Part shown: positions 1,957 through 59,269 of the stretch, one piece after another
Position numbering within the stretch: the first letter of the stretch is position 1
How the letters are laid out: every line of letters starts with the position of its first letter
Assembly (NCBI GenBank): GCA_965217865.1
Contig: CBDCJO010000002.1
Coordinates: 192,001 to 256,000 of the forward strand
DNA length: 64,000 nucleotides
Direction of reading: 5' to 3'
Source: Candidatus Latescibacterota bacterium
GTDB taxonomy: Bacteria > Latescibacterota > UBA2968 > SICM01
Translations under genes and position numbers: made by a program
Notes under the pieces: model-generated
Seen by the model: the letters and a program-made list of their open reading frames with translations, nothing else
Told to the model about the DNA's origin: nothing
Databases searched by the model: none

Positions 1957-3378
1957 ATGCAAAAATCCGTTCTTCGTCTCACCTCACCAATCAGATTGAG
2001 GGCTTGCCTTTTCGCGTTGACCGGTTTCTTCCTCTCCCCGATGTTTGTCAGCCATGCTTCTCCACAGCCGGCAAATGATGTGCATTTCTGCCTGCCCCTC
2101 GATTTTGAAGAAATGAGAGAGAGCGATAGTCTCTATGCTGCTCGCAAGCAGGCGTTTGACTTGAACGTTGGCGAATCCCGCACCGTGCGGATGATCTACT
2201 TCCTGCCCAATGACCGTCCGTTTCGCGCAGAAGTGGTTGATTCGATGAAAGTTGAGATTCGCCAGATTCAGACCTTCTACGGCGAACAGATGCAGGCGCA
2301 CGGATACGGGAACAAAACCTTCCGCTTTGAAACCGATGTGCAGGGCGTGCCGATGATTCATCGCGTGGATGGTCAACACCCCGACAGTCATTATCTTGAC
2401 CTCACATTTCCGGCTATGTATGACGAGCTTGAACAGGCGTTTGATCTCCGTGCGAACATTTACCTCCTTGTCATTGATAATAGTGGTGGAATTGATATTG
2501 GTTCTCGGCGTGTGGGAGGAATAGGAGGCGCCCGGGGAAAAAATGCTGGCTTTGCGTTGGTTCATGGGGGATTCGGCTTCAAAACGGCGGCCCATGAACT
2601 TGGACATGCCTTCGGATTGCAGCACGATTTCAACGATCACCCGTACTTCGATGAACCGTACATCATGTCATATGGCAACAGCCAACGATACTCTCTATCT
2701 GCGTGCAATGCCGAATTTTTGGCTGTGCACCCCTACTTCAATCCCAGTGTTGAAGCGCAAGAAGCGCCACCGCCGGCAATCGAACTCATTTCACAGACTG
2801 GCTATCCGGCAGGCTCGAGAAACGTCACCGTTCAACTCGAAGTCAGCGACCCGGAGGGACTTCACCAGGTGCTCCTGTTCGTTAGAACAAGAGAATTCCA
2901 GGCCGCCGGATCGCCTGAAGTGAAAGCGTGTCATGGATTGGCGGGTGCAAGAGATGCCGTCGTTGAATTTGATTATGACGGTGTCATTCCGTCTTATGAC
3001 TTGACGAGTCTTTCCAACCCTAACGCGCATCCCATTCATGTCCAGGCCGTTGATACTGACGGGAATGTTGGGCGGGTGCGTTTTAACCTCTGGGAAATTT
3101 CGCTACAACATATCGCCACCCTTAGGCATACAAATTGGAAGGATGAACCACTCCTTGCATCCCTTACGGCAGCGTCTGTACATGGCACCGTCGCGACAGG
3201 CGAATGGGCTGGACAACGGATCCGTCGTCGCTGGTCGATCCAAAGGAAGGAATCCGGGGCGGATCCCTCTGGGTCTCATCCCGTATTCTCTCATTTGAAA
3301 TGCCCCTTTTTGATGGCCTTTTGTTTTTTTTCACATTTCAACTATAGGCAAAATCAAGAAAAATTTACGCTTGTATAG
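1957..3378 (+). CDS. Secreted zinc metallopeptidase (metzincin/M12-like), probably 3'-truncated at about 3130
   Basis: Signal-like N-terminus, HELGHAFGLQH motif, Met-turn IMSYG; protein-like sequence ends after QHIATL, where WD40 repeats would start. Confidence 0.75.
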   Translation: MQKSVLRLTSPIRLRACLFALTGFFLSPMFVSHASPQPANDVHFCLPLDFEEMRESDSLYAARKQAFDLNVGESRTVRMIYFLPNDRPFRAEVVDSMKVEIRQIQTFYGEQMQAHGYGNKTFRFETDVQGVPMIHRVDGQHPDSHYLDLTFPAMYDELEQAFDLRANIYLLVIDNSGGIDIGSRRVGGIGGARGKNAGFALVHGGFGFKTAAHELGHAFGLQHDFNDHPYFDEPYIMSYGNSQRYSLSACNAEFLAVHPYFNPSVEAQEAPPPAIELISQTGYPAGSRNVTVQLEVSDPEGLHQVLLFVRTREFQAAGSPEVKACHGLAGARDAVVEFDYDGVIPSYDLTSLSNPNAHPIHVQAVDTDGNVGRVRFNLWEISLQHIATLRHTNWKDEPLLASLTAASVHGTVATGEWAGQRIRRRWSIQRKESGADPSGSHPVFSHLKCPFLMAFCFFSHFNYRQNQEKFTLV

Positions 3379-7379: not shown

Positions 7380-7879
7380 CCCCGATATACCTCCGTGATA
7401 ACATGCCCACTGTATGCCTGGTTTGTATTAAAAAGATTGATCAAACGGGCTGGAATCCCGGCAACTTGGCTCAAAACGCAACCTACCCTCGCAACGTCAG
7501 TACACCAGTCTGATCCACGTTGGATGATCTCTTCTTCAGTCCCTCCGAACCGCATTTCATCCAAGCTTTCATCCACAACATTTTGGCCTAGCCTCTGAGT
7601 AAATCGTACTATTCCCTTGATTTTATCTTCATCCGAACCACAGTCTCCAACAGATTCTTTTAAATAGCTTTCTAACGTTGGGCGTGATCCTTTTTTATAC
7701 CGCACCTGAGTGGGAGTATATTCCTTGTATAAATATCCAGCAGTTTCGGTGCACAAACGAATCAATCGTTCCCATAACACCCAATCCACTGAACCAGGGG
7801 CATGAGTATCGTTTCCCAACATTTTCTGATACGCACACCCAAATTGACTAATACCTCTGTAATTGGAAAGGTTATCCAA
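7380..7879 (-). pseudogene. Transglutaminase-like cassette gene, 3'-truncated
   Basis: GSDWCTDVAR (Cys) and GHVITEVY (His); follows the R' box GTTAGGC at 7947-7953. Confidence 0.7.
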
Positions 7880-8078
7880 TGTCTTTTGCCCTTTAACAAG
7901 GATTTTTTATTCGGCGGAAGATAACCGGGGCCACCTTGCAAATGCCGCCTAACGATTTCTATATTGAGTAAAGGAGGAAAAAAACAGCGTTGAGGGGCTG
8001 AATCTTCCCTTGCAAGGCAAGGTGTCTTAAGATTCGGCAAGCGCAAGCAAACTCAACCCTCAACGCTGGAGGTATACG

Positions 8079-9402
8079 ATGAAGTCGAAAATCTTCCACC
8101 TTAAACGACAGGCCATCTCCCAGAATTTCGTCCTCGGGATCGATCCGGGCAAGGAAAAACACAGCGGGTCGGTGCTCGATCCCTCCGGACTTCAGCAAGG
8201 CGGGGCCTTCTCATTCCCCGTGACGCGAGCGGGATATGACCATACCCTCTGGCAGCATCTGGAGCGACGCATCAAAGATTGCGGGCCGGATCGGATGGTG
8301 GTGGCCATCGAGACGTCCTGCAATCTGTGGGTTACCCTGGCCCACTACCTCCAGGGGAAGGGGTATCGCGTGCTGCTGGTGAGCCCCCTCACGACGTATC
8401 ACGCAAGACCGATGATGCACCGCGATTTCTCCAAGTCGGATCCCAGGGATGCCTTTCTGGTGGCCGACAGCGCACAGAAGGGAAGCTATGATCTCTTCAG
8501 GACGTTCGAGCCTCACATGGAGGCCGCGCACCAGCTCTCAATCGCCTACGACAAGCTCCGGAAGGACCTCACAAAGTCCCTGCTCCGCACCCGGTCTCTG
8601 ATGGAACGCGTCTTCCCGGAGTTCCTCCACGCGGTCAACATTCGTACGAAGACCTCCCGCTACCTGTTGGAGCGATATTTCTTGCCCCGCCACTTCGAGG
8701 AAATTGACATCGAAGAGGAGGGCCTCCAGATCCATCGGATCTCAAGAGGCAGTTACGGGGTGGCGACGCTGCAGAAGCTGAAGGAGGAGGGCCCGGACCT
8801 CCATCGGGATCCCGGTCGAGGGCCAGGAAGATGTCCTCCGCATCATCCTGAATGGCTGGATCGAGGCGCTCCGGCGGACCGAGACGCAACTCAAAGCTGT
8901 GGAGCAGGCGATGATCGCCCGCACTCAGCAGGATCCGACTTTCCAAATCGTCGACTCGATCCCCAACATCAACAAAAACCTGGCTGCCCAATTTACCGCG
9001 GAGACGCGAGGGGCCACCCACTTCAAACAGATCGAGAAGCTCGCCGGCACGAACGTGCGCATCGCCGACTCCGGAAAGTACAAAGGCAAAAGGCGGATGA
9101 GCAAGATCGGCAATCCCCGGCTGCGGCGAATCATCTACCAGATGACCGAACAGACCGCCCGGGTCGTGCCCCAGGTCCGCCGCCGCTTCCTCGAACGCGA
9201 GCTCAGGAAGAAGTGCTACCGCAAGAATATCGTGGCCGCCTCGTCCCAGCTCCTACGGCTCATCGTAGCCCTGCTCAGAGAAAATCGTCTCTACGAGGAG
9301 AGAGACCACCCCGCGGCATCCCTCAAAACGCTCGAGAGGCGCTACATGAAGCGCTACAAGAAAAAGCAGCATCCCCGACGGCGCGCTCGCGCCGCCGCCT
9401 GA
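8079..9402 (+). pseudogene. IS110 DEDD recombinase with +1 frameshift near 8790
   Basis: GIDPGK, IETS and KSDPRDA (DEDD) motifs; C-terminal IADSGK...GNPRLR in a second frame; an extra G in a G-run may be a sequencing error. Confidence 0.85.
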
Positions 9403-9861
9403 CCGCTGCCGCGGTCACACTCGCTCTTTGACTTCGCTGCTCGATTCACACCCGGTGCAGTCTCCTGCCGGACCGGTTACACAAGCTGCCGCCTTCCAAG
9501 GCGGCCAGGGGCGGCCTGCAGAACTGGCTTGAGAGGAGGGCTCCGATAGGAGTCGCTTCGGCTAACAGATCCGCAGGCCTCCCCGTCTTCCTGGATCGGA
9601 TTAGAAAATGCGCGAAGACCGGCACACCTACTCACACAAACAAGAGTGCCGGCCGCGGATGTAAGTTGGTATCGGAAGACACCACCCCCCACACGGGAGC
9701 TTCGCCCCTCTTCAAAGACCGGTCCTGCACCATAAGGGCGAACTGCGCTCCGAACATAGTAAGAATGTCCACTTTACACCCCTTGACGCTGAGAAAACCG
9801 GCATAAAAAATCTCATCCAACCTCGAAATCGTCAACTTTGCTCTTGACTTTCCGCATGTAG
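9403..9861 (+). ncRNA. Putative bridge/seek RNA region of IS110 element A
   Basis: ~460-bp ORF-free 3' end with stems (cttcg/cgaag, gatcc/ggatc) enclosing a GCTAAC loop. Confidence 0.55.
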
Positions 9862-10016
9862 TCTGTCCACTCCCGAAGAGGCCGTGCATAGGAAACGCAA
9901 TCAGTGGTTTTAGAATCGGTCAACCTTTAACTCACGGCCTTTTCGGTCGAGCGAAGCGAGCCGGGAGTGGGCTGTTAGGCGAAGTGCCGGCCCGGGGTGG
10001 GGTGGGCTTGGCAGTA

Positions 10017-30067: not shown

Positions 30068-32032
30068 GTGAGCAGCCTGAATATCGGCAACTTCATCTGG
30101 AACATCGCTGACGATGTGCTGCGGGACGTCTATGTGCGAGGCAAGTATAGAGACGTCATTCTGCCGATGACGGTCATTCGGCGTCTGGATGCGGTGCTCG
30201 AGCCGACCAAAGAGGCCGTGCTCAAGATGAAGGGGCAACTCGACAGGGCAGGCGTCGCCAATCAGCACGCTGCGCTCTGCCAGGCGTCCGGCCAGGCCTT
30301 CTATAACACGTCCTCCTTCCGCCTGCGCGATCTCGCCTCCCGGGGCAAGCAACAGCAACTCAGAGCCGATTTCGAGGCTTTCCTGGACGGCTTCTCCCCG
30401 AACGTCCAGGAGGTCCTCGACAAGTTTCAGTTCCGTAATCAGATTCCGACCCTGATCGAAGCCGGCGCGCTTGGATTCCTGATCGAGAAGTTCATCGACA
30501 GCTCGATCAATCTGAGTCCGAAACCCGTCTTGCACCAGGATGGCTCCGTTCGCCTTCCCGGACTCGACAACCACTCCATGGGGACGATCTTCGAGGAACT
30601 GATCCGTCGCTTCAACGAAGAGAACAACGAGGAAGCCGGAGAGCATTTTACTCCGCGTGACGTCGTGGAGTTGATGTCCCGTCTGATCCTTGCGCCCATC
30701 GCAGACATCATTCGGTCAGGCACCTATCTCGTCTATGACGGCGCCTGTGGCACCGGCGGGATGCTGACCGTTGCCGAAGATACGCTCGTCAAGCTCGCCG
30801 CAGAGAACGGCAGGGAGGTGTCTGTTCACCTCTACGGACAGGAGGTAAACCCCGAGACCTTCGCCATCAGCAAGGCCGATCTCATCCTGAAGGGTGAGGG
30901 AGGCGAGGCTGAGAACATGAAGTTCGGCTCGACCCTGTCCGGAGATGCGTTCCCGGGTCGAGAGTTTGACTTCATGCTCTCAAATCCACCCTACGGCAAG
31001 TCCTGGAAGACTGATCTTGAGCGCATGGGTGGGAGGAAAGACATGCGCGACCGGCGCTTCGTCACCGGGCACGCCGGCGATCCGGAGTACTCGCTGATCA
31101 CCCGTTCCAGCGACGGCCAGATGCTGTTTCTGGCCAACATGCTGAGCAAGATGAAACACGGCACCAGGTTGGGCAGCCGCATCGCCGAGGTCCACAACGG
31201 TTCGTCCCTGTTCACCGGCGACGCCGGCCAGGGCGAGAGCAACATCCGGCGCTGGATCATCGAGAACGACTGGTTGGAGGCCGTCGTCGCGTTGCCACTC
31301 AACATGTTCTACAACACGGGCATCGCGACCTATATCTGGGTGCTCGGCAACCGCAAGCCGGAGCATCGCCGGGGCAAGGTCCAACTCATTGACGCCACCA
31401 AGTGGTTCAAGCCGCTGCGCAGGAACCTCGGCAAGAAGAACTGCGAACTGTCGGGCGAGGACATCCGGCGCATCTGCGACGTGTTTCTTGCGTTCGAGGA
31501 AACCGGGCAGTCCAAGATCTTCCCGAACCGGGCCTTCGGCTACCGGAAGGTAACGGTCGATCGGCCGTTACGCCTTGAGGGGATCGACCCCGAGCGCGCC
31601 TGCACTGCCAAAGAGATCAAGGCGCTCAAGGAGGAAGCCGGGCGTTCGGAGACCGCGCCTCCGGTCATCAAGAAGATCCTCAGGAAGGGCACCGAGCCCG
31701 ACCCCGTGCGCGGTCTGTTCGCAGCCACCGTCAAGGGCAAGCCCGTCGTCGTCGAGTACGAACCCGACACTGAGCTGCGTGACACCGAGCAAATCCCGCT
31801 GTTGGAGGAGGGCGGAATCGAGGCGTTCCTGCGCCGAGAAGTGCTGCCCTATGCGCCTGACGCATGGTTTGTGCCGGACAGCATCAAGACCGGCTACGAG
31901 GTCAGCTTCACCCGATACTTCTACAAGCCACAGCCGTTGCGCAAGCTGGAGGAGATCCGGGCGGAAATTCTGGCGCTGGAGCAGGAGACGGAGGGGTTGC
32001 TCGAAAAGATTATTGGGACAATGGAAAGATGA
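30068..32032 (+). CDS. hsdM: Type I R-M methyltransferase subunit
   Basis: GEHFTPRDVV, YDGACGTGGML and NPPYG motifs. Confidence 0.95.
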   Translation: MSSLNIGNFIWNIADDVLRDVYVRGKYRDVILPMTVIRRLDAVLEPTKEAVLKMKGQLDRAGVANQHAALCQASGQAFYNTSSFRLRDLASRGKQQQLRADFEAFLDGFSPNVQEVLDKFQFRNQIPTLIEAGALGFLIEKFIDSSINLSPKPVLHQDGSVRLPGLDNHSMGTIFEELIRRFNEENNEEAGEHFTPRDVVELMSRLILAPIADIIRSGTYLVYDGACGTGGMLTVAEDTLVKLAAENGREVSVHLYGQEVNPETFAISKADLILKGEGGEAENMKFGSTLSGDAFPGREFDFMLSNPPYGKSWKTDLERMGGRKDMRDRRFVTGHAGDPEYSLITRSSDGQMLFLANMLSKMKHGTRLGSRIAEVHNGSSLFTGDAGQGESNIRRWIIENDWLEAVVALPLNMFYNTGIATYIWVLGNRKPEHRRGKVQLIDATKWFKPLRRNLGKKNCELSGEDIRRICDVFLAFEETGQSKIFPNRAFGYRKVTVDRPLRLEGIDPERACTAKEIKALKEEAGRSETAPPVIKKILRKGTEPDPVRGLFAATVKGKPVVVEYEPDTELRDTEQIPLLEEGGIEAFLRREVLPYAPDAWFVPDSIKTGYEVSFTRYFYKPQPLRKLEEIRAEILALEQETEGLLEKIIGTMER

Positions 32033-32838
32033 GCATGGTTCCTTCGTTCCCCGCAGGTCAGATCGAGTCGTTGGCAAAACTGCTCGGTGATTGCGGTACT
32101 GGACCGGATATCACTCGTATGCTGGCTCATTGCGGGCTGATTGATGGCTCGGGAGAATCCACCAAATGGCGGAGGCTCTATTGGGTATTCCTCGATGTCC
32201 AGAACAGGGACAGGTGCGCCAACCAAACACTCAACTTCATTAAGGCTTTCCTTACGCCTGCCCGTTTCGTTGGCAGGAATGAGGAATTCGAACCGCACCG
32301 TCAAGCACTGAACACAATCTTGGCATTCTCAGGGCTTGAGTACGGATCTGACGGGAATTTCCGGAAGCGCCGGGCTGCACAGACGCTGGGCGAGGCAGAG
32401 CGGCGAGCAGACACGATCCAGGCAAAGTTTCAGGGGCGGCGCATCCATCCGGAAGTAATGAAGTACTGTCGCGCTGAACTTATGCAGGACGACTACTTCC
32501 ATGCTGTCTTCGAGGCGACCAAAGGGCTGGCGCAACGGATTCGCGAGATGTCGGGAGTTGATGGGGACGGAGCGACCCTTGTGGATCGGGTCTTCTCTAC
32601 CAGCCGGCCAGTGCTGGCGTTCAACTCGTTGCAAACCGAGACGGAAAAGAGTGAACACCGGGGATTTGCTGAGCTGCTGAAGGGTTGCCTTGCGGCCGTC
32701 AGGAACCCTCGCGCGCACGAACCGAAGATACTCTGGAAGGGTGAAGATGATGCAGCGGACTACTTCACTCTGATTTCACCCCTCCATCGGAAGCTGGATG
32801 GTTACGTGACGACCGGGTTGAGAGCATTCCGTGATTAG
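32029..32838 (+). CDS. TIGR02391-family protein
   Basis: YFHAVFEATKG, DGATLVDRVF and RNPRAHE motifs; ATGA overlap with hsdM. Confidence 0.85.
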   Translation: MSMVPSFPAGQIESLAKLLGDCGTGPDITRMLAHCGLIDGSGESTKWRRLYWVFLDVQNRDRCANQTLNFIKAFLTPARFVGRNEEFEPHRQALNTILAFSGLEYGSDGNFRKRRAAQTLGEAERRADTIQAKFQGRRIHPEVMKYCRAELMQDDYFHAVFEATKGLAQRIREMSGVDGDGATLVDRVFSTSRPVLAFNSLQTETEKSEHRGFAELLKGCLAAVRNPRAHEPKILWKGEDDAADYFTLISPLHRKLDGYVTTGLRAFRD

Positions 32839-34249
32839 AGACCTCCACTCCTACCCCTCCTACAAACCCTCCGGCGTCGAGTGGCTCGGCGACGTGCCAG
32901 AGCATTGGGAGGTGCGGCGATTGAAATACTCAGTGACGCTACTTATGGGTCAGTCTCCATCCTCGAACGATTGCAGTGACGAGCGCATCGGCCCACCATT
33001 CTTGCAAGGCTGTGCGGAGTTCGGGGCGCATCACCCGAATCCTGTGCAATTTTGTCGTGCTCCATCAAGAATCAGTCCGATGGGTGCGATACTTATGTCA
33101 GTTCGCGCACCTGTCGGCAAGCTAAACACAGCCGATCAGGAATATGGCATTGGTCGGGGACTTTGTGCTATTACCTCAAACGAGAGAATTTCCCACACTG
33201 GATTCTCTCACTACCAACTCGAAACACTTGGTCATGGTTTGAAGTTGGTTTCCACTGGATCCACGTACGACGCTGTCAGCGTAGGTGATATTGGAAACCA
33301 GTCGTTGGTTCTCCCCCCCCTCCCCGAGCAAGCCACCATCGTCCGCTATCTCGACCACACCGACGAACGCATCAGGGCCTACATCCGCGCCAAGCAGAAG
33401 CTGATCAAGTTGCTTGAGGAGCAGAAGCAGGCCGTCATCCACCGCGCCGTCACCCGCGGCCTGGATCCCGACGTTCCCCTCAAGCCCTCCGGCGTCGAGT
33501 GGCTCGGCGACGTGCCAGAGCATTGGAAGGTGCGGCGACTTCTAACTGTTGCCGAAATGAGGGTCAGTAACGTGGATAAGCATACCAAGGAGGATGAATT
33601 ACCAGTCCGACTCTGCAATTATGTCGATGTTTACAAGAACGACCGTATCACTCAGGGGATGGCCTTCATGAACGCAACGGCCTCGCGAGAGGAGGTTGAG
33701 AGGTTCCGCCTACAGCGAGATGATGTCCTCATAACTAAGGACTCCGAGTCCTGGGACGACATTGGGGTTCCGGCTCTTGTGACGGAGCCAGCCGATGATC
33801 TTCTCTCCGGTTATCATTTGGCCTTACTGCGGCCTCTCAGACAGGTGCTAGGGGCTTATCTGGCCCGGACTTTACAAAGCAGGGGAGTTGCGTATCAGTT
33901 TCACGTAGAAGCGAAGGGTGTAACGCGATACGGCCTTACTCACGCTGGCATCCAATCGGTACACATTCCCCTCCCACCCCTCCCCGAGCAAGCCGCCATC
34001 GTCCGCTATCTCGACAAGGCCACCGCCGACATTGACACCGCGGTTGACCGCGCCCGCCGCCAGATCAACCTGCTACGCGAATACCGCACCCGCCTGATCG
34101 GCGACGTCGTGAGCGGCAGGCTCGACGTGCGTGATGTTGAGATTCCGGGGTCTGGGGAAGAGCCCGCATTCGACGGAACCAACGACCTGGAAGGGGAGAC
34201 GGAACCAGACGAGGCCGAGGTGATGGAGGAGGCCTGTTGTGACGACTGA
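32831..34249 (+). CDS. hsdS: Type I R-M specificity subunit
   Basis: Two TRDs bounded by repeated KPSGVEWLGDVPEHW and PPLPEQ segments. Confidence 0.95.
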   Translation: MIRDLHSYPSYKPSGVEWLGDVPEHWEVRRLKYSVTLLMGQSPSSNDCSDERIGPPFLQGCAEFGAHHPNPVQFCRAPSRISPMGAILMSVRAPVGKLNTADQEYGIGRGLCAITSNERISHTGFSHYQLETLGHGLKLVSTGSTYDAVSVGDIGNQSLVLPPLPEQATIVRYLDHTDERIRAYIRAKQKLIKLLEEQKQAVIHRAVTRGLDPDVPLKPSGVEWLGDVPEHWKVRRLLTVAEMRVSNVDKHTKEDELPVRLCNYVDVYKNDRITQGMAFMNATASREEVERFRLQRDDVLITKDSESWDDIGVPALVTEPADDLLSGYHLALLRPLRQVLGAYLARTLQSRGVAYQFHVEAKGVTRYGLTHAGIQSVHIPLPPLPEQAAIVRYLDKATADIDTAVDRARRQINLLREYRTRLIGDVVSGRLDVRDVEIPGSGEEPAFDGTNDLEGETEPDEAEVMEEACCDD

Positions 34250-37202
34250 CACCAGCGAGAAAGGCCTGGAATCGCTCATCGTCCGCTCGCTGATCGACGA
34301 GGCCGGCTATGCCGCCGGGGACCCGAGGGACTATGACCGCGACCATGCCGTCGACCTGGCCAAGCTTCTCGCCTTCCTGATCGCCACGCAGCCAGCGTCC
34401 GTCGAGACGCTCGGCATCGGCACGGATGGCCCGCAGCGCGTCCAGTTCCTCCACCGCCTTCAGGGCCAGATCGCCAAACGCGGCGTCATCGACGTACTGC
34501 GCAACGGCGTGAAGCACGGTCCTTGTTCTGTCGAGTTCTTCTTTGGCACGCCGTCTCCCGGCAACGCCAGGGCGGAGGAGTTGTTCGCCGCGAACGTCTT
34601 CAGCGTCACGCGCCAGCTGCACTACTCGAAGGACGAAACCAGGCTGTCGCTCGACGTGGCGCTCTTCGTCAACGGCCTGCCGGTCGCTACGTTCGAGCTC
34701 AAGAACAGCCTGACGAAGCAGACCGTCGAGGACGCCATCGAGCAGTACAAGCGCGACCGCGACCCGAGGGAACTGCTTTTCCGGTTCGGCGGCTGCGCCG
34801 TCCATTTCGCGGTGGACGATCACGAGGTGCGGATGTGCACCCACCTCAAAGGCGAGGGATCGTGGTTCCTGCCCTTCAACCAGGGTTGGAACGACGGTGG
34901 GGGCAATCCGCCGAATCCCGCCGGCCTCAAGACCGGCTACTTCTGGAAGGAGGTTCTGACCAGGCGGAACCTGACGGACATCCTCGAAAACTACGCCCAG
35001 GTGGTCGAGGAGAGGGACGACAAAGGCCGGAAGAAGGCCCCGAAGCAGATCTTCCCTCGTTTCCACCAACTCGACGTGGTTCGCAAGCTGCTGGCGGACG
35101 TGAAGGCTTCCGGCGCAGGCAGGCGCTACCTGATCCAACATTCGGCGGGATCGGGCAAGAGCAACTCTATTGCCTGGCTCGCCCACCAAATGATCGAACT
35201 GGAAACAGGCGGCAAACCGACTTTCGACTCCATCATCGTTGTCACCGACCGGCTGGTGCTCGACAGGCAGATCCGTGACACGATCAAGCAGTTCGCCCAA
35301 GTGGAATCCGTCGTCGGCCATGCGGAGCGGTCGGGTGACCTGCGAGCGTTCTTGAAGACCGGCAAGAAGATCATCATCACGACGGTCCAGAAGTTCCCGT
35401 TCGTTCTCGACGAGATCGGCGATGAACACCGAGGCCGCAGGTTCGCCATCATCATCGACGAAGCCCATTCGAGCCAGGGCGGCCGGACGTCCGCCGCGGT
35501 CTCCATGGCCCTGGGGACGGCCGGTGCCGGGGACGAAGACGAGACGACCGAGGACAAGATCAACCGGCTGATGGAGTCCAGGAGACTGCTGCCCAACGCC
35601 AGCTACTTCGCGTTTACCGCGACGCCGAAGAACAAGACGCTGGAGATTTTCGGAGAGCCCGTACCCAAGGCCGGGCAGGTCGGGCACGTTCCATTCCACA
35701 GCTACACGATGAAACAGGCGATACAGGAGGGCTTCATCCTGGATGTGCTGGAGCACTACACGCCGGTGGACAGCTACTGCCGGCTCATGAAGACGGTGGA
35801 GGACGATCCTCTGTTTGACACCAAACGAGCACAGAGGAAGCTTCGAAGATATATCGAATCGCACGAGCACGCCATCCGCCAGAAGGCGGAGATCATGGTC
35901 GATCACTTTCACGATCAGGTCATTGCGCGCCTTAAGATCGGCGGCCAGGCCCGGGCCATGGTGGTGACCGACGGTATCCAACGGGCGATCCGTTATTTTC
36001 ACTCCTTCGAGGAGTATCTGGAGGAACGCAAGAGCCCCTACCGGGCAGTAGTCGCCTTCTCGGGCGAGCACGAATACGGCGGACGGAGGGTCACCGAGGC
36101 GTCGCTCAATGGATTTCCGTCTGGCAAGATTGCCGACAGGATACGGGAAGACCCTTACCGGTTTCTGGTTTGCGCCGACAAGTTCCAGACCGGCTACGAC
36201 GAGCCGCTCTTGCACACCATGTACGTGGACAAGGTGCTCTCGGGCATCAAGGCGGTTCAGACGATCTCACGATTGAACCGTGCGCGTCCGCAGAAGCACG
36301 ACACTTTCGTGCTGGACTTCATGAACGATGCCGAGGGCATCGGAGCGTCGTTCGAACCTTACTATCGAACCACGATTCTCAGCGAAGAAACCGATCCGGA
36401 CAAGCTGCACGACCTGAGGACCGGCCTCGATGGTTATCAGGTCTACAACCGGGATCAGGTGGAGGAACTCGTCGCTCTCTACTTGAGCGGAGCCGACCGC
36501 GACCGGATCGATCCGATCCTGGATGACTGCGTGGCGATCTACAGATCCGACCTCGACGAGGACGGCCAAGTCGATTTCAAGGGCAAAACGAAGGCGTTCA
36601 CACGGACTTATGGGTTCCTCTCGTCGATTCTGCCGTACACAAACGCGGAATGGGAGAAGCTGTCCATATTTCTAACCTTCCTGACGCCCAGGCTGCCGGC
36701 GCCTGAGGAGCAGGACCTGTCAAAGGGCATTCTCGAGGCGATCGACATGGACAGCTACCGGGTCGAGGTACGGGCGAGGATGGCGATCCCCCTGCCTGAC
36801 GCGGACGCTGAGATTGGTCCGGTGCCGACGAGTGGCGGCGGCCGGAAACCAGAGCCGGAGGTCGACTACCTGAGCAACATTCTCAAGACCTTCAACGAGC
36901 TGTTCGGCAACATCGAGTGGAAGGATGCCGACAAGATCGGCAAGGTCATTACCGAGGAGCTGCCGGACAAGGTCGCTGCCGACAAACCCTATCAGAACGC
37001 TATGAAGAACTCCGATCGGCAGAACGCCCGGATTGAACACGACAAGGCACTCGAACGGGCTGTGATTGAATTGCTTTCCGACCACACTGAACTCTTCAAG
37101 CAGTTCAGTGACAATCCTTCATTTCATAAGTGGCTTTCTGAGATCATCTTTACAGCAACCTACCATCAAGGGGCTGAAGGTGGGAGCCTGTCAGTCCCGT
37201 AG
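34239..37202 (+). CDS. hsdR: Type I R-M restriction subunit
   Basis: FELKN, HSAGSGKS, DEAH, FTATP and QTGYD motifs. Confidence 0.95.
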   Translation: MTTDTSEKGLESLIVRSLIDEAGYAAGDPRDYDRDHAVDLAKLLAFLIATQPASVETLGIGTDGPQRVQFLHRLQGQIAKRGVIDVLRNGVKHGPCSVEFFFGTPSPGNARAEELFAANVFSVTRQLHYSKDETRLSLDVALFVNGLPVATFELKNSLTKQTVEDAIEQYKRDRDPRELLFRFGGCAVHFAVDDHEVRMCTHLKGEGSWFLPFNQGWNDGGGNPPNPAGLKTGYFWKEVLTRRNLTDILENYAQVVEERDDKGRKKAPKQIFPRFHQLDVVRKLLADVKASGAGRRYLIQHSAGSGKSNSIAWLAHQMIELETGGKPTFDSIIVVTDRLVLDRQIRDTIKQFAQVESVVGHAERSGDLRAFLKTGKKIIITTVQKFPFVLDEIGDEHRGRRFAIIIDEAHSSQGGRTSAAVSMALGTAGAGDEDETTEDKINRLMESRRLLPNASYFAFTATPKNKTLEIFGEPVPKAGQVGHVPFHSYTMKQAIQEGFILDVLEHYTPVDSYCRLMKTVEDDPLFDTKRAQRKLRRYIESHEHAIRQKAEIMVDHFHDQVIARLKIGGQARAMVVTDGIQRAIRYFHSFEEYLEERKSPYRAVVAFSGEHEYGGRRVTEASLNGFPSGKIADRIREDPYRFLVCADKFQTGYDEPLLHTMYVDKVLSGIKAVQTISRLNRARPQKHDTFVLDFMNDAEGIGASFEPYYRTTILSEETDPDKLHDLRTGLDGYQVYNRDQVEELVALYLSGADRDRIDPILDDCVAIYRSDLDEDGQVDFKGKTKAFTRTYGFLSSILPYTNAEWEKLSIFLTFLTPRLPAPEEQDLSKGILEAIDMDSYRVEVRARMAIPLPDADAEIGPVPTSGGGRKPEPEVDYLSNILKTFNELFGNIEWKDADKIGKVITEELPDKVAADKPYQNAMKNSDRQNARIEHDKALERAVIELLSDHTELFKQFSDNPSFHKWLSEIIFTATYHQGAEGGSLSVP

Positions 37203-41465: not shown

Positions 41466-41519
41466 GACCTTTCGGAAGGCTCTAACAGCGGCAACTGCGT
41501 TTAACACATATTAAAGGCC

Positions 41520-42006
41520 CCGGGTCAAGAAAAAAAGACTCCTCCATCACGATTTTCACCGTTTTTTTGCGACCCTAACGTTCGGGGCGTGCAATGAGCC
41601 GATCCGAAGAGGTTTGGCGATGTTCGGATCTTTGTCAGTCGTCGGTCTGACTTGATTTTCACAAACCGGGCTAGATGTGAGCCATCTGCACCAAACACGT
41701 ATCGGGAATCAAGCGCCTCTCACGGTATACTGTGGAGCGCCCTGGGAGAGGCATTGTCCTCTCCCTCCAGAAAATAATCGGTACCCCTTGAGTCCCAATC
41801 AAGAAGGATGGCTGTTCTCCCCTTTTATGAGGGGGAACGCCAGTTAGGTTCGGGTTCATCGCGGGGGCAGACGGACTGACTGTCTCAGATCCGCTCATCT
41901 ATGTTCTAAATAAGGGGTGAAGGCGGCTTCCCAATCAAGCCGATGAGCTGGGCTATTGTCCGGACGTTGCCCTGCCAGTTAGGCGCCGGGTTAACCGCCC
42001 CACCCA
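41520..42006 (-). ncRNA. Putative bridge/seek RNA of element B
   Basis: Two repeated modules CCTAAC-tggc...cttgattggga enclosed by stems. Confidence 0.7.
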
Positions 42007-43050
42007 TTATGCTACAAACCGTTTCTCGTCGAATGCCTGGCCGTTTTTGAGCATTTGGTAGGCGGCCACGCCGAATTTGTGAGCGATGACGCTCTTGGCT
42101 TTTCCCGGACCTTGTTTGCTTTTGAGCTTCTCGTAGTATCTATTGATCGGTTCTGACCATCGCTGGGCGACGAGGATGATTTCTGAGAAGGCCCACTTTA
42201 GGTGTGGGTTGCCGATTTTGTTATTCCCGTCCTTTGTCTTCTTTCCAGCGGACTCTCTCTCGACTTTGATCAGCCGGCTGTAGGAGGAGAAGGCTGAAGC
42301 GGATTTGAACCGTTCAATCGTGTGGATTTCATACAGGATGGTCATGGCCAACATCTCCCCAAGTCCGGGAACCGTCATCAGGATAGACAGGACATTGCGA
42401 TCGTGATGTTTGGCCTGTGCCAAGACTTGCTTCTCGACTTTGTAGATCATTTTGTCCAGGGAGTCAACCAGGTCCAGATCGCAGTCCACAGACATACTCA
42501 GATCTGGGTCGGCCAGACGTTCGCACAGCTTTCTCCTGTTGCTCTTCTTTTTGACCTGGTCGCTGAGAGGATCCAGGATAGCTTGCTGAGAGAAGGTGTT
42601 CTGGATGTGGGTGTAACACTCAGCCCGTAAGGCCACAAACCGGTGTCTTCGCCGGAGCAGGTCCCGGGTTGCCCGCATCTCTTGCGGATAGGCATAGGCC
42701 ATCGGGAACAGGTTGCAGCGCATCAGCTCAGCCAGCATTCTGGAATCGAGACGGTCGTTCTTTTTCTTGCCCCCATGGATCGCCTTCATATACAGGGCGT
42801 GTCCCAGGTAGAATGGAATCCCGGCCTTGTGACACCCGTCAGCCAGCCAGTACCAGTTGAAGGTTGACTCCACCCCGACGGCGATGCTACCGAGGTGAGT
42901 TTCCAGCACCTGCAGCAGGAGCTTGAAGTCGTTTTTCAGGTTGCGCTGGAACACAATCTCTCCCATCTTGTCCATGATGCAGACAAACATCGTTCTGGCG
43001 TGGAGATCGATGCCACAGAAATAGTTCGAGTCGATCCTTGCGTATTGCAT
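42007..43050 (-). CDS. IS110-family DEDD recombinase
   Basis: GIDLH, VEST, KNDRLDS, ESAGK and GNPHLKW motifs. Confidence 0.95.
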   Translation of the reverse strand: MQYARIDSNYFCGIDLHARTMFVCIMDKMGEIVFQRNLKNDFKLLLQVLETHLGSIAVGVESTFNWYWLADGCHKAGIPFYLGHALYMKAIHGGKKKNDRLDSRMLAELMRCNLFPMAYAYPQEMRATRDLLRRRHRFVALRAECYTHIQNTFSQQAILDPLSDQVKKKSNRRKLCERLADPDLSMSVDCDLDLVDSLDKMIYKVEKQVLAQAKHHDRNVLSILMTVPGLGEMLAMTILYEIHTIERFKSASAFSSYSRLIKVERESAGKKTKDGNNKIGNPHLKWAFSEIILVAQRWSEPINRYYEKLKSKQGPGKAKSVIAHKFGVAAYQMLKNGQAFDEKRFVA

Positions 43051-43239
43051 AAGGCCCTCCTGTGGGAGAAAGGTGATTGAGATATCCGGATCTCAATTAT
43101 AACCTCTCCTGACAACGAGGGCCTTTATATTAATATCACCCCATTGCCGGCTTCGGACCATTCGGGCCTTCGCGAAACCCCTTCGGGGTTCGGCAATGGT
43201 GGAACGTTAGTGGCCATGCTCGAAAATTGAGGGTTTCAA

Positions 43240-56818: not shown

Positions 56819-56848
56819 AAACGAGCAGAACCCCAGCTTCGCCTAACA

Positions 56849-58478
56849 CATATTAAAGGCCCCGGGTCAAGAAAAAAAGACTCCTCCATCACGATTTTCA
56901 CCGTTTTTTTGCGACCCTAACGTTCGGGGCGTGCAATGAGCCGATCCGAAGAGGTTTGGCGATGTTCGGATCTTTGTCAGTCGTCGGTCTGACTTGATTT
57001 TCACAAACCGGGCTAGATGTGAGCCATCTGCACCAAACACGTATCGGGAATCAAGCGCCTCTCACGGTATACTGTGGAGCGCCCTGGGAGAGGCATTGTC
57101 CTCTCCCTCCAGAAAATAATCGGTACCCCTTGAGTCCCAATCAAGAAGGATGGCTGTTCTCCCCTTTTATGAGGGGGAACGCCAGTTAGGTTCGGGTTCA
57201 TCGCGGGGGCAGACGGACTGACTGTCTCAGATCCGCTCATCTATGTTCTAAATAAGGGGTGAAGGCGGCTTCCCAATCAAGCCGATGAGCTGGGCTATTG
57301 TCCGGACGTTGCCCTGCCAGTTAGGCGCCGGGTTAACCGCCCCACCCATTATGCTACAAACCGTTTCTCGTCGAATGCCTGGCCGTTTTTGAGCATTTGG
57401 TAGGCGGCCACGCCGAATTTGTGAGCGATGACGCTCTTGGCTTTTCCCGGACCTTGTTTGCTTTTGAGCTTCTCGTAGTATCTATTGATCGGTTCTGACC
57501 ATCGCTGGGCGACGAGGATGATTTCTGAGAAGGCCCACTTTAGGTGTGGGTTGCCGATTTTGTTATTCCCGTCCTTTGTCTTCTTTCCAGCGGACTCTCT
57601 CTCGACTTTGATCAGCCGGCTGTAGGAGGAGAAGGCTGAAGCGGATTTGAACCGTTCAATCGTGTGGATTTCATACAGGATGGTCATGGCCAACATCTCC
57701 CCAAGTCCGGGAACCGTCATCAGGATAGACAGGACATTGCGATCGTGATGTTTGGCCTGTGCCAAGACTTGCTTCTCGACTTTGTAGATCATTTTGTCCA
57801 GGGAGTCAACCAGGTCCAGATCGCAGTCCACAGACATACTCAGATCTGGGTCGGCCAGACGTTCGCACAGCTTTCTCCTGTTGCTCTTCTTTTTGACCTG
57901 GTCGCTGAGAGGATCCAGGATAGCTTGCTGAGAGAAGGTGTTCTGGATGTGGGTGTAACACTCAGCCCGTAAGGCCACAAACCGGTGTCTTCGCCGGAGC
58001 AGGTCCCGGGTTGCCCGCATCTCTTGCGGATAGGCATAGGCCATCGGGAACAGGTTGCAGCGCATCAGCTCAGCCAGCATTCTGGAATCGAGACGGTCGT
58101 TCTTTTTCTTGCCCCCATGGATCGCCTTCATATACAGGGCGTGTCCCAGGTAGAATGGAATCCCGGCCTTGTGACACCCGTCAGCCAGCCAGTACCAGTT
58201 GAAGGTTGACTCCACCCCGACGGCGATGCTACCGAGGTGAGTTTCCAGCACCTGCAGCAGGAGCTTGAAGTCGTTTTTCAGGTTGCGCTGGAACACAATC
58301 TCTCCCATCTTGTCCATGATGCAGACAAACATCGTTCTGGCGTGGAGATCGATGCCACAGAAATAGTTCGAGTCGATCCTTGCGTATTGCATAAGGCCCT
58401 CCTGTGGGAGAAAGGTGATTGAGATATCCGGATCTCAATTATAACCTCTCCTGACAACGAGGGCCTTTATATTAATAT
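56849..58478 (-). mobile_element. IS1111-type element B, copy 2, 1630 bp
   Basis: Apparently identical to copy 1; CA core on both sides. Confidence 0.9.
57349..58392 (-). CDS. IS110-family DEDD recombinase
   Basis: Protein identical to 42007-43050. Confidence 0.95.
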   Translation of the reverse strand: MQYARIDSNYFCGIDLHARTMFVCIMDKMGEIVFQRNLKNDFKLLLQVLETHLGSIAVGVESTFNWYWLADGCHKAGIPFYLGHALYMKAIHGGKKKNDRLDSRMLAELMRCNLFPMAYAYPQEMRATRDLLRRRHRFVALRAECYTHIQNTFSQQAILDPLSDQVKKKSNRRKLCERLADPDLSMSVDCDLDLVDSLDKMIYKVEKQVLAQAKHHDRNVLSILMTVPGLGEMLAMTILYEIHTIERFKSASAFSSYSRLIKVERESAGKKTKDGNNKIGNPHLKWAFSEIILVAQRWSEPINRYYEKLKSKQGPGKAKSVIAHKFGVAAYQMLKNGQAFDEKRFVA

Positions 58479-59269
58479 CAAGGCACTCCCGAACCTGAGT
58501 GACCTCCTTTGACCATTTTAATCGACAGACACACCCTTCAGGGTCGAGCGCATTTCAAGTATGAGGAAACCCGCGGGCTGCGTCTCAAGTCCTTCATTGA
58601 TCTTGTTTCGAATGAAAGCGCTGAGGCCGTCAACTTCACAGACGACCAGATCACGGGGGAATCTCTTTGTAATTGTGCTCTTCTCATCATTCCGACACGG
58701 AAAGTGAGGAATACGCGGCGATCATGCAATATGATGGCGGAATGACTCGTGAGGAAGCCGAAACTCAAGCTCGTGAGGCGAAGATGCTTGATGATCTCCT
58801 GAACCTCCCCCCGTTCGACCTGAAGGACCTCCCCGAACCTGCGCTTGATGATCTCCTGAAGGATCTCCTCATCCTGCCGGAACTCCCTGAACTCCCCCCA
58901 TTCGTGTGACTGTCGCACTCCACTGTTGCAACTCCACTGTCCCGCTCCACTATCCCATATACCCCCCACGGTCGCTTTTCTGAAGGTTCCGCATCCATTG
59001 CCCGGATTCCTGAATAAAGTCGCACACGGGGAGAATCCGATGCCCTGTGGGCGATTCCGGGGCAAGGGGGCCATCTCGTTTAAGGATCCCAGCCCATGAG
59101 GGGTCGCGGCTCCGCCGCCGGAAACCACATGGGGCCTCCTTCCAAGAAAAAGTGGAGGCAAAAACGTTGCGCGGGGCTATCCGGTCGGCGGATTCGGAAA
59201 CTCCGGCCCTGGACGAGGGGTCGATTCGCCGGTTGAAGGATGAGCTTTGCCGCCGCGAGCTTGGGCTGA

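Follow-up and report, generated by a model that had tools for sequence, protein, structure and literature searches.

The window, the whole 64,000-nucleotide stretch of DNA that we analysed (G000:C2:192001-256000), carries an IS110-family insertion sequence that interrupts an integron attC within its R' arm (Table 1). When the element is excised in silico (7955-9861), a 127-bp attC palindrome is regained, as the original prediction said it would be, and an intact sibling attC at C2:4229043-4229170 supports the reconstructed site. We label the arms R', R'', L' and L'' after PMC7923331. The minus-strand cassette gene begins right after GTTAGGC (7879). The spacers of this attC are 5 nt between R'' and L'' and 8 nt between L' and R', as in most intact attC of the genome, and most local attC, this one included, pair L'' with L' without a clear extra L'' base. 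The window also contains Type I restriction-modification genes (M, S and R; 30068-37202) with an inserted Hypoth_Ymh gene, and is otherwise dense in fragments of IS3, IS256-type and other insertion sequences. The names IS3 and IS1182 are presumptive on our part, from Pfam matches and motifs.

Table 1. Features at the interrupted attC and the second IS110 element, in window positions
Feature	Position	Strand	Remarks
Next cassette gene, transglutaminase-like	7381..7879	-	truncated by a fragment of a DUF772 transposase
attC R' core GTTAGGC (crossover arm)	7947..7953	-	stays joined to next cassette
Shared G	7954	+	common to left junction, right end and target; sole base common to donor and target
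IS110 element	7955-9861	antisense to cassette	in R' arm of attC, one base from GTT crossover
Left end	7955..8078	+	-10 hexamer TATATT 7960-7965
IS110 DEDD recombinase gene	8079..9402	+	broken by extra G near 8789 and 9-nt deletion at 9014
Predicted bridge RNA	9505..9700	+	ends approximate
Predicted target-binding domain	stem 9513-9519/9573-9579	+	first loop
Predicted 5' target guide	9522..9534	+	reads flank right of insertion (L'-R' spacer, L' box), loosely
Predicted 3' target guide, GCTAAC + extra base + GAT	9561..9570	+	GCTAAC reads R'; GAT matches left junction
Predicted donor-binding domain	stems 9585-9597/9670-9680	+	second loop, 3' of target domain
Predicted donor guide, left end	9603..9609	+	AAT = reverse complement of ATT
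Predicted donor guide, right end, ATGTA + extra base + GT	9659..9666	+	GT matches right junction
Right end	9844..9861	+	-35 hexamer TTGACT 9844-9849; terminates in CATGTAG
Rest of attC	9862..9980	-	R'' 9974-9980, 5-nt spacer, L'' 9961-9968, L' 9869-9875
Element A (other IS110, 347 aa)	41502..43137	-	in R'' arm of attC; second copy near 56844-58480

The arm that is occupied can be read from the intact attC of the genome. TAAC is followed by A at R'' in 18 of 23 and GTT is preceded by C at R' in 21 of 23, and therefore a bottom-strand TAACG marks R'. As a test of the crossover arm, we compared each R' with the R'' of the next cassette: all 3 variable bases are complementary in 9 of 17 adjacent pairs, as against 1 of 37 when R' and R'' are taken from within one attC. 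The pairs that fail are four lying more than 1.7 kb apart and four others, which are all the pairs whose R' carries the element. The sites thus show both the R''-L''-L'-R' anatomy and the cassette-end complementarity of integron attC. A profile search of this genome found no integrase above the IntI cut-off. The best match (L012, C2:1657178-1657988) is split, scores below the cut-off and has nothing at model positions 181-234, and attC-like sites are found about 1-2 kb away; this split tyrosine recombinase is possibly a variant integrase.

The recombinase gene of the window copy is damaged. Its two IS110 domains (PF01548 and PF02371) are split over two frames, and the protein scores 157.9 against the NF033542 cut-off of 140, with a DEDD RuvC domain and a Tnp domain with the catalytic serine; the catalytic residues D22, E78, D121, D124 and S334 are invariant in 50 aligned proteins. 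The genome holds seven copies longer than 1800 nt plus 10 shorter matches. In four full sibling copies the gene is intact and specifies a protein of 443 aa, whereas two others have a different frameshift in common. Six differences are private to the window copy: an extra A at 7978 in the left end, the extra G near 8789 (missing from the six other full copies), the 9-nt deletion at 9014 and three substitutions. We examined 8 of 23 sequencing runs, all of them contig-only. These runs carry the majority allele at the frameshift and contain pieces spanning both junctions of the window site; their contigs merge copies and so neither confirm nor refute the frameshift. The copy is frameshifted as assembled. 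Given that the deletion and three substitutions accompany the indels, we think that the decay is real, in which case the copy would need the recombinase of an intact sibling to move. The left end also contains a perfect 12-bp inverted repeat (7985-7996/8057-8068) whose 3' arm touches the ribosome-binding site, and which could damp the translation of read-through transcripts.

The original prediction noted that joining the element ends creates TTGACT-17-TATATT, and this is correct. Of 49 junctions compared, all 49 have a -10-like hexamer TA.a.T at 17-nt spacing and 46 have TTG at -35, counts that are partly circular given that the ends were located by these motifs. We predict from these letters that the joined ends form a promoter, a feature of the IS110 family. 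No end-to-end joint of the element was seen in the eight contig-only runs, whose contigs merge copies. In one relative (L085:60-95), CAAGTAG adjoins the left end as at a circle or tandem junction, without a -35 hexamer. Copy-out routes have been reported for another IS110 (10.1101/2025.10.25.684509, a preprint), and excision therefore need not be cut-and-paste.

We next consider where the element inserts. In its own genome, the left end is preceded by TAACG in 10 of 11 cases (one, on contig C1, duplicates a C2 flank) and the base after the right end is T in 11 of 11, giving the target (Y)TAACG|T with insertion on the attC bottom strand. The target reads C-G-T and the donor A-G-A, with the single base G in common. 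An attC hairpin follows eight of the 11 right ends; of the other three, one is borderline and two lack it. In all eight attC-opening copies T precedes the far core, as expected of R'', and in all eight the element lies antisense to cassette transcription. The three copies outside attC are in a sodium:alanine symporter gene, in an IS3-type gene and at a site without TAAC. By comparison, the genome contains 5167 TAACG sites, and about 5% pass the hairpin test (50 of 1033 tested). A further right-end remnant of the element lies directly 3' of a CRISPR-like repeat array (C2:2467700-2468209). Elsewhere in the phylum Latescibacterota, a relative was found in 1 of 167 other genomes, a weak count because IS copies are often left unassembled.

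Relatives of the element are spread across phyla. A protein search gave 169 matches at E <=1e-30 among 7997 candidates scored, and the 50-protein alignment, used as a query, led to 41 loci in genomes and 248 in metagenomes, of which the best 80 were retrieved. Record titles name Nitrospirota, Ignavibacteriota, Bacteroidota, Calditrichota, Cloacimonadota, Acidobacteriota, Neomarinimicrobiota and others; no relative was present among the viral contigs searched. The left junction is TAACG in 66 of 87 homologues and TAATG in 8, with G at -1 in 84, and some subclades are found at TAATG, TAAAG or TACAG. On the right, 31 of 60 flanks score as a hairpin, compared with 2.3% of shuffles and with the 50 of 1033 TAACG sites in the host genome, and T precedes the far GTT in 22 of these 31. 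A stricter box test on the same 60 flanks assigned 24 to R' and 1 to R''; it missed visible hairpins, and an alignment test was added beside it (both leave out 11 loci with a right flank under 60 nt). The 29 flanks below the hairpin threshold include truncated or weak ones and some that are clearly not attC (for example, L014 and L103). The original prediction named homologues inserting mostly outside attC as a refutation; this is not what we find, although 29 of 60 flanks stay below the threshold. One of the exceptions, L014 (a 51% relative; 1366-1377, 3196-3350), adjoins one end of a long palindrome, which has an efflux-type gene on either side and is non-attC by the tests used. One subclade of 22 loci (L034, L036, L048, L128, L133 and others) has a left end of 212-351 nt with a second conserved structured motif besides the bridge RNA, for which Rfam gave no match.

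The non-coding sequence downstream of the gene is also conserved. Out of 72 sequences, 68 align over about 250 nt, the four without an anchor (L046, L058, L091, L135) being omitted. The consensus fold was poor, and we therefore folded each sequence separately and ran the guide tests on alignment columns only. The window sequence folds as two domains (z -2.74). Folding gives two domains for 51-57 of 65 sequences, with several types of base pair represented in the main stems. The original prediction placed GCTAAC (9561-9566), GAAAATG (9604-9610) and GATGTA (9658-9663) correctly, and proposed that the first two lie opposite each other in one loop. This arrangement does not hold: in 57 of 65 folds GCTAAC is separated from GAAAAT by four or more closed pairs, and none of the 65 encloses both in one loop. 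The partner of GCTAAC is instead the segment at about 9522-9534.

We find that the bases of these loops vary together with the DNA that they are predicted to read. In the 3' target guide, 9566 equals target position -2 in 58 of 59 relatives and 9565 equals position -3 in 57 of 58, and guides with TAAT, TACA or TAAA occur on matching targets. The R' guide has in this way been retargeted naturally to TAAA, TACA or TAAT (L103, L104, L108, L139; L043, L110, L112, L117, L138, L144); the TACA and TAAA sites of these relatives score below an attC hairpin. The 5' target guide (9522-9534) matches its own right flank with a mean of 4.11, against 2.84 when permuted and a maximum of 3.3 in 5000 permutations (n=63 of 68; L014, L096 and loci with short flanks omitted), and 24 dissimilar guides give the same outcome (4.25 versus 2.84). 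On the donor side, GATGTA had been noted for its resemblance to the donor end, and column covariation identifies it as the guide for the right end: the two are identical at 9659, 9660 and 9662 in 67, 67 and 66 of 68 sequences. GAAAATG had been taken as a reader of the attC target, a role that we reject, given that 9607 is patternless against target +1 to +3 yet complements left-end base 3 in 55 of 59; it reads the element's own left end. Lastly, target +1, the base next to the insertion on its right side, is matched by 9666 in 48 of 66. The GAT and GT that follow the 3' guides, with one extra base between, are probably handshake guides of the kind described for IS621-type bridge RNA (PMC11208158). 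In a quick tree, the target guide changes on four branches and each donor guide on at least five, kin not being independent. Mismatches do occur, in L040, L066 and L136, in four left ends with ATT and guide TAT, and in 18 of 66 at target +1. From the DNA we thus predict a two-loop bridge RNA, all four guides of which covary with the target or the element ends. Rfam gave nothing meaningful for it (one match at E 0.18), a sigma-70-like pattern for a separate RNA promoter is present in only 3 of 72 sequences, and one RNA run contained two low-depth pieces, which are no evidence of expression. The RNA gene itself scored as attC-like, and we rejected it as an attC, the score being an effect of its guide.

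A second IS110 in the window, element A, uses the opposite arm. Its transposase and that of the R'-arm element are 20% identical in alignment (BLASTP E 0.004) and unrelated beyond the family. Element A is found at TAAC-A in R'', with 10 of 12 junctions at TAAC directly and one more at a TAAC two bases out. That two distant IS110 lineages meet the TAAC of opposite attC arms (TAAC-A in R'', TAAC-G in R'), both antisense to the cassette, is thus borne out. The genome contains seven near-identical and several 95% copies of element A, which has a long downstream non-coding region and one shared base (A) at TAAC-A, and whose nearest plasmid matches are about 45% identical. One attC (C2:1983182-1984952) holds a complete element A in R'' and, in R', a remnant of the R'-arm element consisting of its final 393 nt. 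With 14 element A sites, 8 R'-element sites and about 58 attC, a total that rests on a hand-curated list of 37 intact attC, about 1.9 doubles are expected by chance and 1 is seen (P of 1 or fewer 0.37); no more follows from these numbers than that neither element excludes the other. The idea that the two lineages could share attC without competing therefore survives in part: sharing occurs, at about the chance rate, and arm choice as a way of avoiding competition is not upheld. At C2:3240551-3241070, 3340391-3341332 and 2879328-2881637, the left end of an R'-arm element at the preceding R' and an element A at the next R'' bracket a stretch, the first of which holds a methyltransferase-domain gene.

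Based on these data, we propose with high confidence that the window contains a frameshifted long-type IS110 one base from the R'-arm crossover, and that its downstream non-coding sequence likely gives rise to a two-loop bridge RNA by which the recombinase is directed to this position. By analogy with work on IS621 and IS1111, the element would form a circle whose junction makes the promoter described above. In the first loop, GCTAAC would pair with R' and the 5' guide, loosely, with the L' box and the L'-R' spacer; the second loop would pair with both element ends, and the bases after each 3' guide would make handshake pairs once strands are exchanged. Insertion would part R' from the remaining hairpin and freeze the site, leaving GTT intact.

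Other explanations of the R' position can be weighed against the same data. The R' arm may have been selected because other attC parasites occupy R''. Known IS1111-attC elements and group IIC-attC introns do insert at the 5' (R'') end, and element A sits at R'' in the same genome with one attC holding both. Yet the single double site gives no sign of exclusion or attraction and, with TAAC in both arms, guide drift to either arm needs no competition; we regard niche partition as an unlikely cause. Less probable still is that the lineage targets any TAACG with a loosely matching flank, attC R' arms being merely the commonest such sites in its hosts. The three copies outside attC in the host genome, the homologue flanks under the hairpin threshold, the non-attC palindrome at L014 and the use of TAATG, TAAAG or TACAG by some subclades are all compatible with such a preference. 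Against it, few genomic TAACG sites pass the hairpin test, yet most right ends of the element do, and the 5' guides spell the L'-box sequence of their own flanks. In addition, the flanks that go with a TAAT guide close with GTTA, like attC, in 5 of 6 cases by eye, two of them above threshold.

It is also conceivable that what the protein recognises is attC folded as a hairpin or cruciform, with RNA matches of little weight in site choice. Hairpins are indeed present at most sites, the 5' guides match their flanks over short and varying stretches, and the bottom strand in its folded form is what group IIC-attC introns use (PMC7923331). We consider this reading very improbable, because guides change with the target on separate branches, TAACG|T insertions occur in genes without a hairpin, and one attC took a second element after the first insertion had removed an R arm from its hairpin.

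Under our proposal of an RNA-guided R'-arm element, attC parasitism extends to the crossover arm and to an IS110 branch for which we found no named member. The lineage is a natural series in which all four guides have been retuned several times, making it useful for working out the guide rules of long bridge recombinases with a downstream RNA. The doubly occupied attC indicates that a site already taken in one arm can still be hit in the other. About 21 of the roughly 58 recognised attC in the genome carry one of the two elements, which may therefore explain its scattered, broken arrays. A broader picture, which we offer tentatively and with considerable doubt, is that of an ancient IS110 clade that spans phyla and has the crossover arm of integrons as its niche. 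Such a clade would have a fixed R' guide and a second guide retuned to each host's L' box; its recombination, through an overlap of one base and with handshake guides that are bulged, would differ in chemistry from that of IS621 with its two-base core. In combination with R''-arm elements, the clade would bracket cassettes and freeze whole arrays, making RNA-guided insertion sequences a main route of integron decay.

In its proposed mechanism the lineage resembles IS621 and the IS1111 seekRNA elements, and by family it is an IS110. Among the closest known parallels is the IS1111-attC group (ISKpn4, ISPst6, ISPa21, ISPa25), which likewise combines an IS110-family recombinase, a downstream non-coding RNA, an attC target and an antisense orientation to the cassette (PMC11187229, PMC3001079), with the top-strand guide ahead of the bottom-strand guide (PMC11187229). 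ISKpn4 and ISPst6 target one attC end, and some IS110-type elements have downstream non-coding regions (PMC11187229). The IS1111-attC group inserts near the 5' (R'') end (PMC3001079), whereas our lineage is at R'. The non-coding regions of the group carry TAACAAT and TTGAACG (supplement table of PMC11187229), which we read as putative R''-L'' guides. IS1111 transposases are 330-350 aa (size classes of PMC11187229) as against 443 aa here, and IS1111 elements have subterminal inverted repeats of 7-17 bp, while the longest perfect repeat in our lineage is 2-5 nt in 58 of 60 loci and 6 and 7 nt once each. As in IS1111, the longer non-coding region is downstream of tnp (311-619 nt in 80 loci, versus 65-351 nt upstream in 98). 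No ISPa21 or ISKpn4 transposase is among the plasmid matches listed. Group IIC-attC introns are also attC parasites that use the bottom strand and lie antisense to cassettes; they differ as retroelements inserting at R'' (PMC7923331, PMC3001079).

The accessible portions of PMC7923331, PMC11616780, PMC11089894, PMC5001619 and PMC5034289 make no mention of an insertion sequence in the R' arm. Our literature search, whose scope did not include the 2008 paper by Tetu and Holmes, that of 2009 by Post and Hall or seekRNA target logos, returned no R'-arm IS110, no target for the lineage and no doubly occupied attC. Six motifs of the clade were compared with the ISfinder proteins of PMC11187229, and none is present there; at least one clade member, without an ISfinder name, is in a supplementary table of PMC11208160.

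Sequence comparison found no structural relatives besides IS621 and ISCro4, with E about 1e-10 across the C-terminal domain. With these the lineage shares the DEDD residues and catalytic serine, separate target and donor loops, the junction promoter and handshake-like positions (PMC11208160, PMC11208158). It differs in that its protein is about 115 aa longer, its guide order is reversed relative to the gene, and one extra base lies between guide and handshake segment. The guides are downstream of the gene, in contrast to the IS621 RNA in the left end, and donor and target share one base rather than the 2-nt core of IS621, the cut positions being unreadable from sequence. The lineage also resembles the long IS110 subgroup (395-455 aa), which is alike in length class, in an NF033542 score above cut-off and in short or absent subterminal repeats; ISBth13, 25.6% identical, is the nearest named element found. 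Within the literature searched, the mechanism is known, and the target position and the lineage are new.
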